NCBI GenBank assembly: GCA_026683435.1
Contig: GCA_026683435.1_4866.1
DNA length: 64,000 nt
Strand: one strand, 5' to 3'
From: a phage
The notes under the pieces are model-generated. The model had not been told where the DNA came from. It ran no database searches and saw nothing but the letters and a program-made list of their open reading frames with translations. This document shows, one piece after another, positions 44,473 to 64,000 of the stretch; position 1 is the stretch's first letter, and each line of letters opens with the position of its first letter. The position numbers and the translations under genes were made by a program.

Positions 44473-45021
44473 TTACACGACAGTGTGACCTTCGCCGCCG
44501 AATCCGCCCAGTTCACCGTTGGTGGTGCTCAGGTCAGTTTTAACGATTGGCTGCGTTACAGTATAAACTGCAAGGCTGGCAGGTTGGTATTTAATGTGGC
44601 CTTCTTTCACCTTAACAGTGATGACTTTCTCACCACTGCTGCCGTCCTCGCGTGTAATGGTGAGTTCAGACAACGCAAACGCATCTTCCGTTTCACCGTC
44701 GCCAAATAGTTCTGCGTTGACAAAAGCAAGCACTTCTTCATCGGTATCCCATTCTGCCTGGTCAGCGGTAACTGCTTTCGCACCGATGATGTTCGATGAA
44801 TCGAGGCGGGTATAATGCAGCTCTTTCTCGCCAGTAAAGTTAGCGGATTCCGCGGTGGCAGTGATGGTGAGTTTGGAGTTGCGAGTGTCTCCAGAATCTG
44901 CTGGTGAATAGTCAGCAACAGCGCCGAATGTAACGTCAGCAGAAGTTAACGGACTAGACAGTCCGCTGTTTGCAGCATTAAACAGCGCGACGAGTTGGTC
45001 TTTTGCAGAGATGACTGCCAT
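44473..45021 (-). CDS. N-module family protein (182 aa), short member
   Basis: N-terminus matches the shared ~75-aa module of the 47.9-64 kb array; C-terminus ...TTNGELGGFGGEGHTVV resembles the NGELDGF tails of 53991..55409 and 57366..58778. Confidence 0.55.
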   Translation of the reverse strand: MAVISAKDQLVALFNAANSGLSSPLTSADVTFGAVADYSPADSGDTRNSKLTITATAESANFTGEKELHYTRLDSSNIIGAKAVTADQAEWDTDEEVLAFVNAELFGDGETEDAFALSELTITREDGSSGEKVITVKVKEGHIKYQPASLAVYTVTQPIVKTDLSTTNGELGGFGGEGHTVV

Positions 45022-45144
45022 GGTTGTTTCCTTATAGTAGGTTTGTGGTGCATACTAAATCGTTCTAAAAACAACATAGTGGGCTTAATATGACAGTAAA
45101 GTTGGCTGTTAAACGAGAAAGTTTTTACCACTGAAAGGTACTCT

Positions 45145-45636
45145 ATGAAACGTCTATTTATCGTATTCGCGATTATAAACCTGTTGGCCGGTTGTGTTCA
45201 GTCGCCAAGCAACATAGGACAATTTAGCGCCACACCAGTAAAGAATCACGACTTGGTGATTTATACATGCACAGGGACGCAGGAGAAGTTTGTAGACTAC
45301 CGTCCGGTACTGGACAACCTACAAATGATGCCGCGGTCAGTAACAGTAATGGATGTGGGTGCAAACTGGGTAGCAGCGTGGGACGGTGGCAAACTAGAGT
45401 CACCGATGATGTTTAAAGATACAATTGGCAAAATCGACGGGAATGTTAACACCACCACAGGTGAGCGTTATTACCGTATTAATAAAACCGTAAACGATAG
45501 CCCCACTTATTCTTTTTCGGATGTGAACCCGTATACCGGCGAAGGTAAAGGGATGACATTCTTTCGCTGCAGCAGCGGGTTTATCGGTGAAGTTCCTACT
45601 CCGATTACGATTGTTCCGTTAGAAGAAAATAAATAG
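45145..45636 (+). CDS. lipoprotein (163 aa)
   Basis: MKRLFIVFAIINLLAGC: signal peptide with lipobox LAGC. Confidence 0.55.
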   Translation: MKRLFIVFAIINLLAGCVQSPSNIGQFSATPVKNHDLVIYTCTGTQEKFVDYRPVLDNLQMMPRSVTVMDVGANWVAAWDGGKLESPMMFKDTIGKIDGNVNTTTGERYYRINKTVNDSPTYSFSDVNPYTGEGKGMTFFRCSSGFIGEVPTPITIVPLEENK

Positions 45637-45639
45637 TGT

Positions 45640-45680
45640 TTACCCACTCCCGTAAGGGGAGTGGGTAAGGGCTTTATTTA
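45640..45680 (+). terminator. rho-independent terminator
   Basis: TTACCCACTCCC / GGGAGTGGGTAA stem followed by GGGCTTTATTT. Confidence 0.55.
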
Positions 45681-45761
45681 CCCTCTAAAACGCTCTGTAA
45701 CGCTCTCTAAGCGCATTAAACGTATCAAATGATAAATGATATTACTTTTGATTAAAGTGGC

Positions 45762-61462: not shown

Positions 61463-61465
61463 TAA

Positions 61466-62377
61466 TTAGGCATTAAAGTGCAGGTACATGATACCCTGGA
61501 AGTTGGTGCACAGAGTGTCATCCAGCTGCAGCAGCAGAACCTGGTTGTAAGCAGTGTTTGCACCTTCAACCGGTTTCTTAGGTTCGTCGCCTGAAGCAGT
61601 GCCATCGTCAGTAGTAGAACCAACGTACAACACGTTAGCGCCTTTCAGGTTATAATCCGCAGGCTTATCAGATGCAACCCACAGTTCCGGCACAACTTTA
61701 TTCAGCTCAACCGGGAATGCAGAGTCGCCAGCGATAACACCTTTCGCCTGTACTTTCAGGAATGCTGCGATTGCTGTGCAGTCTACACCGTAAGAGTAGA
61801 TGTAACCCTGACCCTTCGCAGCGCTTGGACCATCTGGGTAAACCAGGCCGTCGAGCTTGGTTTGTGTTACCACCAGACTCAGACGTTCACCAACCTGAGG
61901 CTTAGCACCGATTTTAACCGGGATGCTGCCCAGATAAGCGTAGCAGTCTTCTTTGAAAGTAATGACGTGGTCAACCGGTGCTGGGTCCGGATCGTTCGGG
62001 TTAGTCAGCGGCGGGTTGGTATTTTCCGGAATAGCCGCCGGAACGATATCGTCTTCGGTCAGCTTCAATCCGTATTGGGTGTTCAGGGTCGTCAGCAGGT
62101 CGGTGGTGGTTTTCGGCAGTTTAACGTCGAGGTATGCGGTTACATTACGGAACAGCGCACTGCCTTCCAGGCGATTATAAGTCACGTCCTGAGTACCGAT
62201 GTACCCGGAGTTCTTTTTCGCAGTCAGGGTCATGCTGGTATTGCGATCGGCACCTTCATCGCTAATAGGGGTCGGTGTGCCGAGCGTTATTTTAGAAAGT
62301 TCCAGTTCTGCGTCTGGGTTTTTCTCATTAATAAAATCCAGAACCAGCTTATCGGACGTTTTGTTTAAAGGTTTCAT
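61466..62377 (-). CDS. N-module family protein, ~280-aa subfamily (303 aa)
   Basis: N-module (LVLDFINEKNPDA...VTYNRLEGSALF); C-terminal IMYLHFNA. Confidence 0.55.
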   Translation of the reverse strand: MKPLNKTSDKLVLDFINEKNPDAELELSKITLGTPTPISDEGADRNTSMTLTAKKNSGYIGTQDVTYNRLEGSALFRNVTAYLDVKLPKTTTDLLTTLNTQYGLKLTEDDIVPAAIPENTNPPLTNPNDPDPAPVDHVITFKEDCYAYLGSIPVKIGAKPQVGERLSLVVTQTKLDGLVYPDGPSAAKGQGYIYSYGVDCTAIAAFLKVQAKGVIAGDSAFPVELNKVVPELWVASDKPADYNLKGANVLYVGSTTDDGTASGDEPKKPVEGANTAYNQVLLLQLDDTLCTNFQGIMYLHFNA

Positions 62378-62398
62378 TCTTACTTCCTTTACTCAGGA

Positions 62399-63244
62399 TT
62401 AATCAGGGTCGTTGTAATGCAAATACAAACGCCCGCCAAAATTCAGACAGTACAACGACAGCTCCACAATCAGCACGTTGTCGACTGCTGGGTTGGTTGG
62501 TAATTCCGCTTTGTTACGCCCGTTATAGACGACGACGGCTTCACGAAGGTTAAAGTCGATAGGGTTGCGGTACGTTGTCCAGTTATCACCGGTGACCGTT
62601 TTGAGAATCTGTGCCAGACGTTCTGTGGTTATCGCAGCACCTAGTCGTTGAAATTCCTCCGCGAAATTATCAAAGCGCCAGGGATACGAATAAACTGCAC
62701 CTTGACCGACCTTGATGTTAAAATACGGATACTCGTAAGGCATCACTGTTAACGGTTCGAAGTTTGCAGGAAGCAACGCATCGCCTGGTAACAGCTGTAC
62801 CTGTTGTTGCCCTATCCAACCTAAAGAAGTGGGCGTGGCAATCAGATCCACACGCCATGTCTTCCTGTCGATTTCGGTATTCACCACATCTGCAGGTTTA
62901 AGGCTGAGACCGTAATACTGGTTAATTAACCCGACCACGTCATGCATCTGGTAAACAGCATCGAGACGTGCAGGAACACGTAGAGGTTGAATCCCGTCCG
63001 GATCGGTAAACATGTCTGCGAAGTCAACACGATCGTAGTACACGGTAGTGGCACCGATAGCATTAGCCGTGGCCAATGCCTGAATGCGCACCATCGCGTT
63101 GTGACCGTTAGCTTTTGCCAGGTCTTCGTCAGACGTCGGAATCGCAGGGACACCAAAAACAACATCTTCGACTTTTAAATCGAGATTGTTTTCGACGTTA
63201 ACTTCCGCGATAATAATCTTTTCAGCTGTGGCTAAAAGTGGCAT
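62399..63244 (-). CDS. N-module family protein, ~280-aa subfamily (281 aa)
   Basis: N-module (IIIAEVNVENNLD...TVYYDRVDFADMF); C-terminal RLYLHYNDPD. Confidence 0.55.
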   Translation of the reverse strand: MPLLATAEKIIIAEVNVENNLDLKVEDVVFGVPAIPTSDEDLAKANGHNAMVRIQALATANAIGATTVYYDRVDFADMFTDPDGIQPLRVPARLDAVYQMHDVVGLINQYYGLSLKPADVVNTEIDRKTWRVDLIATPTSLGWIGQQQVQLLPGDALLPANFEPLTVMPYEYPYFNIKVGQGAVYSYPWRFDNFAEEFQRLGAAITTERLAQILKTVTGDNWTTYRNPIDFNLREAVVVYNGRNKAELPTNPAVDNVLIVELSLYCLNFGGRLYLHYNDPD

Positions 63245-63254
63245 GTCAAAATCC

Positions 63255-64000
63255 TTATATCGGGAGATAATGAAGGATGAGATTACCGGCGTAGTTGCTG
63301 TCCGCAGCTAGCTTGATAATCGCCACACGCTGATAATCGGGGTTGTAACTATCGTTCGGTGTGACTGAAGTTATCCCCATAAATCGTGCACCTTGGAGTG
63401 CAATTTGTTCAGGTTGCGCATTCGCCCCCGTCACATATGCAAACTTTAATGGCACCACTTCATTCAACAACTCAACATCCGCTGCAGTGATTGCACGGTT
63501 GTAAACCCAATCGGTGGTGAACTGTTTTTGCAGTTCAGTCCAATCGTAACCATACGCCACATACTCAGCCTGCGGTTTACTAGCAACCACGAACGGCGCG
63601 ATAATTGCGCTGAGGTCAACATCCGTCACCACATCCGCCAAGTTCGGGAAGAACTTCGCAAAGCGTAAACGGAAACCACCTTGCCAGGCCAAGCAACCGG
63701 GCTTAATAGTCACATCGATTAACCAGCTTTCTCCCAAATCTTTTACTGACTGGTCAACGATATCGTCGGCAACTAAAGACAAGCCGTATTTCGCATTCAG
63801 AAACGGCAACAACTCAGAGAGTTTATTTACCGGGTCGGCAACGACTACCGGTATTACGTTCCTGAACAGAATTTCCATTTCGATACGGTCGTATTCGAGC
63901 GTAACGTTGCCTTTGTAGCCCTTGCCGTTCAACCCGTATAAGAGCACACGCGTATTCCGGTCAGCGCCAGGCGTTTGGACAGACTCAGGGAAGCCAGTTG
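63255..64000 (-). CDS. N-module family protein (partial; N-terminus beyond window end)
   Basis: ORF track start 63947 is a GTG; the frame stays open to the window edge and upstream codons encode ...ADRNTRVLLYGLNGKGYKGNVTLEYDRIEMEILF, completing the N-module; C-terminal NLILHYLPI. Confidence 0.5.
   Translation of the reverse strand, partial: TGFPESVQTPGADRNTRVLLYGLNGKGYKGNVTLEYDRIEMEILFRNVIPVVVADPVNKLSELLPFLNAKYGLSLVADDIVDQSVKDLGESWLIDVTIKPGCLAWQGGFRLRFAKFFPNLADVVTDVDLSAIIAPFVVASKPQAEYVAYGYDWTELQKQFTTDWVYNRAITAADVELLNEVVPLKFAYVTGANAQPEQIALQGARFMGITSVTPNDSYNPDYQRVAIIKLAADSNYAGNLILHYLPI

Follow-up and report, generated by a model that had tools for sequence, protein, structure and literature searches.

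What is the role of a long array of related phage genes whose products begin with one shared module and differ beyond it? The question is raised by the stretch of phage DNA analyzed here (contig GCA_026683435.1_4866.1 of assembly GCA_026683435.1; 64,000 nucleotides, called the window throughout), in which such genes occupy positions 44,473 to 64,000. We name them by their lowest coordinate. An original prediction, made from the sequence alone, saw in them a constant attachment module fused to variable distal domains, i.e., a multivalent receptor-binding repertoire. The array is essentially certain to be the DUF7941 gene cluster of a Seoulvirus, called 'paralog family B' in phage SPN3US, and as such it is already known from the SPN3US reports of 2016-2017, a Pfam entry and a functional model of 2026. 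As to its role, we lean slightly towards a reading in which the array proteins polymerize by themselves into flexible, non-covalent head-to-tail chains outside the virion, which carry cargo of the adhesin type and help to find and hold hosts. The module is indeed constant, but in this proposal it would be the self-polymerizing unit and not a simple attachment handle. Of the predicted repertoire, it holds that these are virion proteins and that several have binding-type domains, but most members are free of cargo.

Identity of the array and extent of the shared module

Between 44 and 64 kb the window has 97% DNA identity to SPN3US-like jumbo phages (hosts Salmonella, E. coli and Proteus), which places it in the genus Seoulvirus, family Chimalliviridae. 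The array genes, all on the minus strand, correspond one to one to SPN3US genes, with order and strand conserved and protein identities of 90-99.6% (Table 1); the gp138 counterpart lies beyond the window end. This nucleotide identity and gene-by-gene orthology, together with Pfam scores above the cut-off and a profile match to PDB entry 9xqd (see below), are the reasons why we consider the assignment essentially certain.

The genes named in the original prediction are joined by all-vs-all BLASTP with E values down to 7e-23 over about 150 amino acids (aa). A hidden Markov model (HMM) of the module, built from eight copies, recovered every one of them in the six-frame translation of the whole window. 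Intact genes left out of the build (63255, 47913 and 44473) scored E values from 7e-24 to 8e-7, and the same HMM also detected, besides a weak further copy within 47913, a relic at 51635-52105. The Pfam family DUF7941 (PF25613, 276 positions; curated gathering cut-off 27 bits) matched all 11 intact genes with 45-292 bits. This match spans the full length (1-276) in 58828, 59659, 60557, 61466 and 62399; in 44473, 47913, 50105, 53991 and 57366 it is confined to the N-terminal ~100-170 profile positions. The predicted relationship is therefore far beyond chance. The module itself, put at ~75 aa, is actually ~150 aa long and is the N-terminal domain of DUF7941 (N-domain below).

Intact bearers of the module number 11 (44473, 47913 with two tandem copies, 50105, 53991, 57366, 58828, 59659, 60557, 61466, 62399 and 63255). 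The 'at least 16 paralogs' of the original prediction are correct if all interrelated genes are counted (11 intact, one relic and four partner genes), not if only module bearers are. The partners (52090, 52992, 55423 and 56356) match no Pfam family at E<=0.1 and, judged from their sequences, are not DUF7941 members; what they share with the middle of 53991 and 57366 is a different domain (BLASTP E 1e-8 to 5e-20; phrog_1062). The paralogs are old: protein identity among them is 21-42%, and neither recent duplication nor DNA tandem repeats were found in the array. These corrected module boundaries and counts are a modest, incremental contribution.

In SPN3US, paralog family B was described between 2016 and 2023, growing in 2017-2023 to 20-21 members, all detected in virions (PMC5105663; PMC5694885; PMC10052503). 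The locus is the same: the window holds orthologs of gp139-gp150, gp154 and gp160 and a gp151 relic, with gp155 adjoining, and lacks gp152, the bulk of gp153 and gp151's C-terminal part. The SPN3US papers defined the family by PSI-BLAST, without domain dissection. They omit gp155, which has two N-domains, and include the partner genes, which have no DUF7941 module.

Plain units and the proposed chain

The idea that every member is a module fused to distal cargo did not hold, since six of the 11 genes (58828 to 63255), and 44473 besides, are cargo-free, plain DUF7941 units. These resemble filament subunits more than a repertoire of receptor binders. The AlphaFold2 model of the 61466 product (mean predicted local distance difference test, pLDDT, 83) consists of an N-domain (1-160), a low-confidence linker (165-185, pLDDT 48-65) and a C-domain (186-303), and the whole unit is also present in 50105. 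The LYLHYN tail, taken for a sub-family add-on, is instead the last strand of this conserved C-domain. In a Foldseek search the sole significant PDB match of the model was the N-domain of PhiKZ gp127 (E 5e-7), whose solved fold it resembles. The family profile likewise matches the full 290 residues of PhiKZ gp127 (PDB 9xqd_0) at E 1e-23, so that the homology covers N-domain, linker and C-domain, including the terminal …LLIHYN. The only structural relative is thus a protein of the baseplate periphery, and neither an enzyme nor a DNA binder, either of which would have spoken against a structural role. PhiKZ has ~3 family members and a single gp127 in each star lobe. The present array counts a dozen or more genes, some with products at hundreds of copies, and these co-purify with heads independently of the tail.

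A preprint on phage Goslar (Basu et al., April 2026; 10.64898/2026.04.21.720040) names DUF7941 as a chimallivirus family with ten Goslar members, of which gp23 (~2,140 copies) and gp22 (~580) are the abundant ones; it reports more than 2,500 copies per virion. Goslar gp22 forms filaments in vitro (negative stain), and AlphaFold 3 predicts head-to-tail dimers in which the linker and C-domain of one protomer lie on the N-domain of the next. The preprint proposes a baseplate-anchored 'fibre cloud' for host recognition. Much the same idea as the receptor-binding reading of our array was thus reached independently, and that reading is not new. The two phages share the Pfam family and the architecture of N-domain, disordered linker and C-domain. 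They also share an abundant full-length member (gp22, whose counterpart 61466 is the most abundant full-length member here) and an abundant short one (gp23, counterpart 44473), the pair standing beside a GH108-type lysin gene in both. Some members of each carry binding domains. The cargo differs: carbohydrate-binding, glycoside-hydrolase and leucine-rich-repeat domains in Goslar, Gp38-like, lectin/FGE-like and FN3-like domains in the window phage, which has about twice the Goslar copies in a single array with conserved triplets.

By extension, we infer that each unit consists of the ~150-aa N-domain followed by a conserved yet intrinsically flexible linker motif, and that the linker of one protomer, with or without a C-domain, would dock on the N-domain of the next. 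The chain builders would be the six full-length genes (58828-63255) together with the short protein of N-domain plus linker encoded by 44473.

The tails as probable linker motifs

A way to see how the short and the cargo-bearing members might enter such a chain is to compare their tails with the linker of the full-length units, which reads L-x-L-x(3)-T-x-T-x-L-(D/N)-G-(L/F)-x-Y-P. Of the 32 positions that are invariant or nearly so in the family alignment, four (L166, L175, Y180 and P181) fall in this linker, though it is predicted to be disordered in the monomer. Aligned with hhalign, the gp160-type family is collinear with the full-length units from the N-terminus through the linker motif (E 4e-11), with …KTDLSTTNGELGGF of the former placed over …ERLSLVVTQTKLDGLVY of the latter. 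The gp145-type family ends in 32 residues that are in turn homologous to the gp160-type tail (E 2e-10). In Goslar, gp23 (180 aa) ends …LATVLADNVADGFVKP… and gp22 carries …LDLANIIKVTNLGNLTY… at the equivalent place.

The 'NGELDGF tail' is therefore probably the linker motif of the DUF7941 family. With moderate confidence, 44473 can be described as N-domain plus linker, like Goslar gp23, and with similar confidence 53991 and 57366 as N-domain followed by cargo, spacer and linker motif. One result counts against this. When the short tails alone were compared with the full-length profile, the best local match fell on the linker each time (positions 164-179), but at non-significant E values of 0.2-0.4. 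The match of the short tails is weak on its own, and the claim has to be carried by the collinear alignment and the tail-to-tail homology, so that it depends on collinearity and transitivity. The C-terminal parts, described as unrelated, are in any case not so: LYLHYN belongs to the C-domain, NGELDGF aligns to the linker motif and PYTKSAPKPW lies in a domain common to 47913 and 50105. We regard the reading of NGELDGF as a linker motif as a new, modest addition.

Cargo-bearing genes and gene triplets

Gene 47913 has the clearest cargo. Its two N-domains are matched by hhalign at E 2e-6 and 1.4e-5, and they are followed by the glycine-rich-motif receptor-recognition domain of the T-even Gp38 tip adhesins (PF05268), scoring 65.9 bits against a cut-off of 25. 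Compared with the PDB, this domain matched phage S16 gp38 (6f45_D, E 1.1e-3) and a second Gp38 structure (9v85, E 9e-3). The Pfam match spans only profile positions 61-214 of 218, and the N-terminal part of Gp38 was not found in this gene. That part of the profile includes the segment that attaches Gp38 to the tip of the gp37 fiber. Unlike the T-even proteins, 47913 has two DUF7941 N-domains in its N-terminal 316 residues and an extra C-terminal domain after the GP38 region, the latter common to 50105 (BLASTP E 7e-6). As far as sequence tells, then, it is no Gp38 ortholog; it has an adhesin domain of the Gp38 type mounted on another carrier. Gene 50105 aligns over residues 1-280 with positions 1-302 of the full-length profile (hhalign, E 3e-17), and matches PHROG 1037 over its full length (E 2e-66) and phrog_6409 at aa 312-436. 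Both genes might encode carriers at the chain end, 47913 with its tandem N-domains before the adhesin domain and 50105 with a complete DUF7941 unit before the common C-terminal domain.

The second type of cargo is found in the middle of 57366. In the predicted model both of its domains have a pLDDT of ~90, whereas the C-terminal 90 residues are disordered. The second domain yields a consistent set of matches to the fold of the C-type-lectin binders (Bordetella phage Mtd, the diversity-generating-retroelement proteins TvpA/TaqVP, intimin/invasin tips, FGE-like proteins), and Foldseek independently lists PvdO, TvpA and FGE. A C-type-lectin/FGE-like fold is thus probable but weakly supported, and unlike in those binders there is no sequence-level match: in none of the six genes with this lectin-like domain (57366 and five others of the window, i.e., 52090, 52992, 53991, 55423 and 56356) did Pfam return any hit within it at E<=0.1. 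As in the C-type-lectin-fold receptor binders, the C-terminal half of the domain is the most variable, being the least conserved stretch of the gp145-type alignment. By analogy with 57366, the tail of 53991 is presumably disordered as well. We propose that 53991 and 57366 carry cargo within the chain, with the lectin-like domain and a disordered spacer set between the N-domain and the terminal linker motif (…NGELDGF).

Each of these two genes is trailed by two partner genes, with which it forms a triplet and with whose products its own may assemble. By BLASTP, 52090 is related to 55423 at E 7e-65 and to 57366 at 3e-19. A profile built from the first 95 aa of the four partners matches the Fn3-like protein 3mpc (E 1.8e-4), and also the N-terminal regions of pectate lyases (E 5e-4 and 4e-3); in the individual proteins Pfam found no FN3-like domain. 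In relatives, six FN3 plus lectin-like genes bear the label 'glycosyl hydrolase' (OQ383623 [OQ383623.1, 7584-16295] and MT679221; equivalent to window 52090-57354). We did not adopt it, as Pfam found no catalytic domain; the name probably stems from the FN3-like domain, which also occurs in polysaccharide lyases.

In total, binding-type domains are Gp38-adhesin-like in one gene (47913), C-type-lectin/FGE-like in six and FN3-like in four. The kind of cargo, together with its fast divergence (below), argues for a binding role of the array. The cargo assignments themselves are an incremental contribution.

Divergence between relatives and loss of a triplet

Cargo genes diverge faster than plain units among close relatives (90-96.6% against 97-99.6% protein identity). 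Compared with SPN3US, the values are 90% for gp150, 93% for gp147, 94% for gp148 and gp160, 96% for gp149 and 96.6% for gp155; the plain units gp139-144 have 97-99.6% and neighboring genes outside the family 98.5-99.4%. The 53991 product is in addition 26 residues shorter than SPN3US gp148, by an indel in the C-terminal tail region (near 54154-54161), which suggests that the length of the spacer differs among strains.

SPN3US and SPLA1a have three triplets (gp145-147, gp148-150 and gp151-153), and by blastn the window phage is ~2.9 kb shorter here. The junction of the deletion, at ~51698-51714, fuses gp151 (at codon ~127) to gp153 (at codon ~264) at an imperfect microhomology of 10-13 nucleotides. 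As a result gp152 is gone, gp153 is down to a remnant of ~37 codons and the C-terminal part of gp151 is lost. When 1 kb around the junction was used as the query, the nearest record was phage JN03 (78% covered, including the junction), the only phage in the collection that spans it; no record in the collection covered at least 80% of the query. This deletion of most of one gene triplet is a new, modest addition. Both the divergence of the cargo and the loss of the triplet fit genes of host interaction, although the differences are small.

In many SPFM phage records this region is matched by no more than 6-8 short segments of ~98% identity, and the proteins predicted there are truncated or shifted in frame. 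Errors of sequencing or assembly, not biology, seem to be the cause.

Presence in the virion and copy number

Virion presence comes from published mass spectrometry of the SPN3US orthologs, i.e., from another phage than that of the window. There gp138-155 and gp160 appear in every replicate of doubly CsCl-purified virions, gp141 and gp160 at high, gp143 at intermediate abundance (Table S2, PMC10052503). Absence from virions, which the original prediction had named as fatal to it, is thus contradicted: the orthologs (90-99.6% identical) are all there. Crude copy numbers can be estimated from that table by dividing spectral counts (peptide-spectrum matches, PSMs) by kDa and taking the capsid protein, at 1,615 copies, as the standard, a scale that returns 261 copies of the tail tube protein where ~264 are expected. 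They amount to ~540 copies of gp160, ~390 of gp141, ~180 of gp143 and ~45 of gp155 per virion, and to ~2,000 (~60 MDa) for the whole family.

Such numbers bring up a different use of external filaments, one whose main job is not receptor recognition and could be the formation of virion bouquets, non-specific adhesion to mucus, biofilm or flagella, sensing of the environment or shielding. Thousands of copies with a micron-scale total length exceed the usual need of a receptor-binding organelle, most subunits are cargo-free, there are separate tail-bound giant fiber proteins (gp168-170, PhiKZ gp131-like), and chimalliviruses do make virion bouquets late in infection. The Gp38-type adhesin and the lectin-like domains nevertheless argue for specific ligands, and faster evolution of the cargo genes than of the plain units, with one triplet lost, is the pattern expected of host-range determinants. 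All in all we consider this use quite unlikely to be the main one.

Head or baseplate

Where on the particle the proteins sit is disputed. In SPN3US, tailless heads of the tail-tube mutant 255(am107) contain gp138-gp155 and gp160 (Table S2, Scheuch et al. 2023, PMC10052503). Their normalized head/virion ratios are 0.89-1.67, next to 1.39 for the major capsid protein and 1.40 for the portal, while gp168-170, sheath, tube and tape measure give 0.004-0.03 and baseplate and fiber proteins 0.004-0.07 (PMC10052503). Head co-purification was likewise found in the 64_112(am27) mutant and in a 'heads' fraction (Reilly et al. 2020). Proximity to the giant fiber genes, part of the original prediction, is real (their gp168-170 homologs are neighbors) and proves no tail membership, because the family stays with tailless heads while gp168-170 do not.

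On the other side, the PhiKZ atlas puts a single gp127 in each star lobe, where the gp139 band of the outer baseplate ends, and anchoring at the baseplate is the proposal made for Goslar. The locus thus exposes a contradiction in the literature, with proteomics counting ~2,000 copies on or in tailless heads and two structural studies pointing to the baseplate periphery. The Goslar model of host recognition was built on the baseplate placement without citing the proteomics. Linking the two contradictory sets of results is an incremental contribution, and the amber-mutant genetics of SPN3US makes the location directly testable.

Several of these points weigh against external chains that help in finding hosts. 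Co-purification with heads at capsid-like ratios is not what a cloud anchored only at the baseplate predicts. The SPN3US group labels the proteins as head proteins, 'head ejection?' and 'antler' candidates, which would be internal. The placement of PhiKZ gp127 is provisional, being that of a predicted model docked into a map of 4.4 Å, and so is the Goslar evidence, a preprint that neither mentions nor cites the SPN3US work or tailless particles (10.64898/2026.04.21.720040). Finally, the SPN3US literature that we searched for filaments, hairs or whiskers makes no mention of any on this phage. A 2026 review of jumbo phages does not discuss the DUF7941 family, and we found no usable literature on PhiKZ gp126/gp127 in tailless heads.

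Could the proteins simply come along with the particles, as free filaments that assembled in the lysate and stick to them or co-sediment, without a defined site on the virion? Goslar gp22 polymerizes alone in vitro, the Goslar maps show no density for these proteins, and their presence is independent of the tail. Yet the ratios relative to capsid hold steady between replicates, between mutants and through double CsCl gradients, filaments of free protein would be expected at a density far below that of DNA-filled heads, and PhiKZ gp127 occupies a defined site on the baseplate. We consider this explanation very improbable.

The head data also admit packaging inside the capsid, e.g., in the 'antler' complexes (internal densities that lie beneath the 5-fold vertices) or as ejected proteins, with a role in head structure or after injection and none in host recognition. 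In its favor are the capsid-like ratios in tailless, DNA-full heads of two tail-defective mutants and an independent 'heads' preparation, the tags 'Head, antler' for gp160 and '?antler' for gp141 in the tables of the SPN3US group, the antler densities still unassigned under the vertices, and the presence of the family in prohead-like particles of protease-defective mutants, though these preparations also contain tails. It fits poorly with cargo of the adhesin kind (Gp38-like, lectin-like, FN3, LamG, SPRY, BNR), with the long filaments built by Goslar gp22 and with the position, on the outer face of the baseplate, of PhiKZ gp127, the sole homolog that has been placed experimentally; moreover, the estimated ~60 MDa of the family would have to be added to more than 40 MDa of ejection proteins. 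That the proteins are uncleaved argues less against an internal site than it might, as the virion RNA polymerase is internal and also uncleaved. On balance an internal role seems unlikely to us; we keep it as a rival because the only direct localization data for this exact type of phage point to the head.

The protease-mutant 'prohead' proteomics (PMC7411985) was considered as an arbiter between inside and outside and set aside as not decisive, the preparations holding tails and flagella as well. Its five-slice sheet, which from the proteins listed seems to span only ~45-90 kDa, is not decisive either.

External chains and head co-purification would be reconciled if in SPN3US-type phages the DUF7941 network were on the head or neck, instead of or besides the baseplate. 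Two stand-alone short DUF7941 proteins of SPN3US, encoded far from the array, are of interest here, each with an N-domain and a linker: gp83 (L007 20919-21446; …LVTKRALDGFRPGE), beside the portal gene, co-purifies with heads, and gp237 (L006 2365-2916; …LITVTELNGLVYD), beside the tape-measure gene, is tail-only in mass spectrometry. As a hypothesis only, they might be anchors at two different sites. A network hung from gp83/gp237 might then be a true heteropolymer, with subunits of the type N-domain, cargo, linker motif threaded in the chain, lectin-like triplet assemblies along its length and the Gp38-type adhesin at its end. This reading as a whole we regard as doubtful, if a little less so than an internal location; were it true, it would describe a host-recognition organelle made by bead-on-string polymerization and not by trimeric fibers, and would reconcile the contradictory published results.

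The wider family

When 1.84 billion cluster representatives were searched with a profile of the ten N-domains of the window, 3,108 matched at E <= 1e-3. Among the 150 best, about 40% show 2-3 matched stretches, and in the examples that we re-scanned full N-domains recur every ~170-190 aa with a linker motif between them (e.g., …VLTGFTY…). Among the downstream cargo of the wider family are six LamG domains, SPRY, Ig, BNR-like and Gp38. In two of the proteins (P0308 and P0198) a single chain joins a pair of N-domains to a Gp38-like domain, the lectin-like domain 'GPG…LYNAGL(I/V)YG' and a '…NPYTKS…' C-domain, modules that in the window are spread across 47913, 50105 and the triplets. Such fusions support N-domains lying in series and the cargo modules belonging to one functional system, and this evidence is a new, modest addition. 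A candidate of 4,007 aa with '20 stretches' (P0229) was discarded, since only a short sub-motif was matched and no domain passed the re-scan.

By tblastn, all phage records with matches (124/124) are jumbo phages. The Goslar preprint claims that DUF7941 is restricted to Chimalliviridae (10.64898/2026.04.21.720040). A 2026 paper reports the domain in Spaid-like proteins of Spiroplasma, and among our matches are two long repeat proteins (P0215 and P0244) with ~7-15 mostly partial matches to the N-domain profile, one of which has a membrane anchor of Mollicutes style at its N-terminus and DUF285-like repeats at its C-terminus. Because of the Spiroplasma report and these Mollicutes-like proteins, the family is probably not exclusive to chimalliviruses, nor strictly viral.

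If the chain model is true, hosts would be recognized by a modular polymer whose cargo genes (the lectin-like triplets, the Gp38-like tip) can be gained, lost or swapped; the 2.9-kb triplet deletion may exemplify such a loss. That would bear on how the host range of jumbo phages infecting Salmonella, E. coli and Erwinia is predicted and engineered.

Features of the array and neighboring genes

Table 1. Coordinates in the window, SPN3US counterparts and architecture of the array genes and of the genes lying between the array and the gp160 homolog.
Position	Strand	SPN3US gene	Product	Evidence
44473..45021	-	gp160	182 aa; DUF7941 N-domain and putative linker motif (…KTDLSTTNGELGGF), without C-domain	Pfam E 1e-11
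45762			Weak M15-peptidase-like protein, between array and gp160	
46287			DUF1353 protein, between array and gp160	
47217			GH108 + PG_binding_3 lysin, between array and gp160	
47913..50090	-	gp155	725 aa; N-domains aa 11-153 and 179-316, Gp38-adhesin-like glycine-rich domain aa 373-553, C-terminal domain ending PYTKSAPKPW	Pfam DUF7941 E 3e-22; GP38 E 6e-18
50105..51424	-	gp154	439 aa; complete DUF7941 unit aa 1-280, ~155-aa C-terminal extension also in 47913	
51635..52105	-	gp151-type relic	N-domain only, in-frame stop 51845-51847 (after residue 77)	six-frame HMM E 3e-27 and 4e-6
52090..52989	-	gp150	299 aa from ATG at 52989; FN3-like N-domain, lectin-like 'GPGP' domain, without DUF7941	
52992..53978	-	gp149	328 aa; FN3-like N-domain, lectin-like domain	BLASTP to 56356 E 4e-67; phrog_1062
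53991..55409	-	gp148	472 aa; DUF7941 N-domain, lectin-like domain, tail, putative terminal linker motif (…TNGELDGFQ)	Pfam E 5e-30
55423..56346	-	gp147	307 aa; FN3-like N-domain, lectin-like domain	BLASTP to 57366 E 5e-20
56356..57354	-	gp146	332 aa; FN3-like N-domain, lectin-like domain	BLASTP to 55423 E 1e-13
57366..58778	-	gp145	470 aa; N-domain aa 1-150, C-type-lectin/FGE-like domain aa 155-375, disordered tail aa 380-470, ends …LNGELDGFK	
58828..59658	-	gp144	Complete DUF7941 unit (N-domain, linker, C-domain)	Pfam, 2-276 to 1-276, E 8e-87
59659..60546	-	gp143	Complete DUF7941 unit	Pfam E 7e-82, full length
60557..61396	-	gp142	Complete DUF7941 unit	Pfam E 2e-79, full length
61466..62377	-	gp141	303 aa; complete DUF7941 unit	Pfam E 2e-84
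62399..63244	-	gp140	Complete DUF7941 unit	Pfam E 2e-79, full length
63255..64000	-	gp139	DUF7941 unit, N-terminus cut by window end	Pfam E 8e-54, positions 53-274; 99% identity to gp139 residues 24-270

The start of 60557 is probably the ATG at 61396, as in the SPN3US annotation; its product is 99.3% identical to gp142 from residue 7.

The giant genes upstream of the array, at 24568-37703, are homologs of gp170, gp169 and gp168. The N-domain HMM found no match in window 1-44000, which holds them, and no module was found in common between the DUF7941 array and the PhiKZ gp131-like fiber family (SPN3US paralog family C).

Two adjoining plus-strand genes at 40945-43216, just upstream of the array, are the counterparts of SPN3US gp164 and gp163, annotated as radical-SAM in relatives. 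In SPN3US mass spectrometry gp163 was scored as non-virion, and gp164 gave few PSMs, only in protease-mutant prohead preparations. The gene that follows (43721-44392, plus strand) is a gp161 homolog with DUF4376 (E 6e-9). An SPN3US paper names 'gp161' as a member of family B, yet the DUF7941 protein is gp160, so that this is probably a numbering slip in the text.

Between the gp160 homolog and the lysin-type genes, an open reading frame of 163 aa on the plus strand (45145-45636) opens with a classical lipoprotein signal, MKRLFIVFAIINLLAGC, and has no Pfam match; its product could be a spanin-like or an exclusion lipoprotein.

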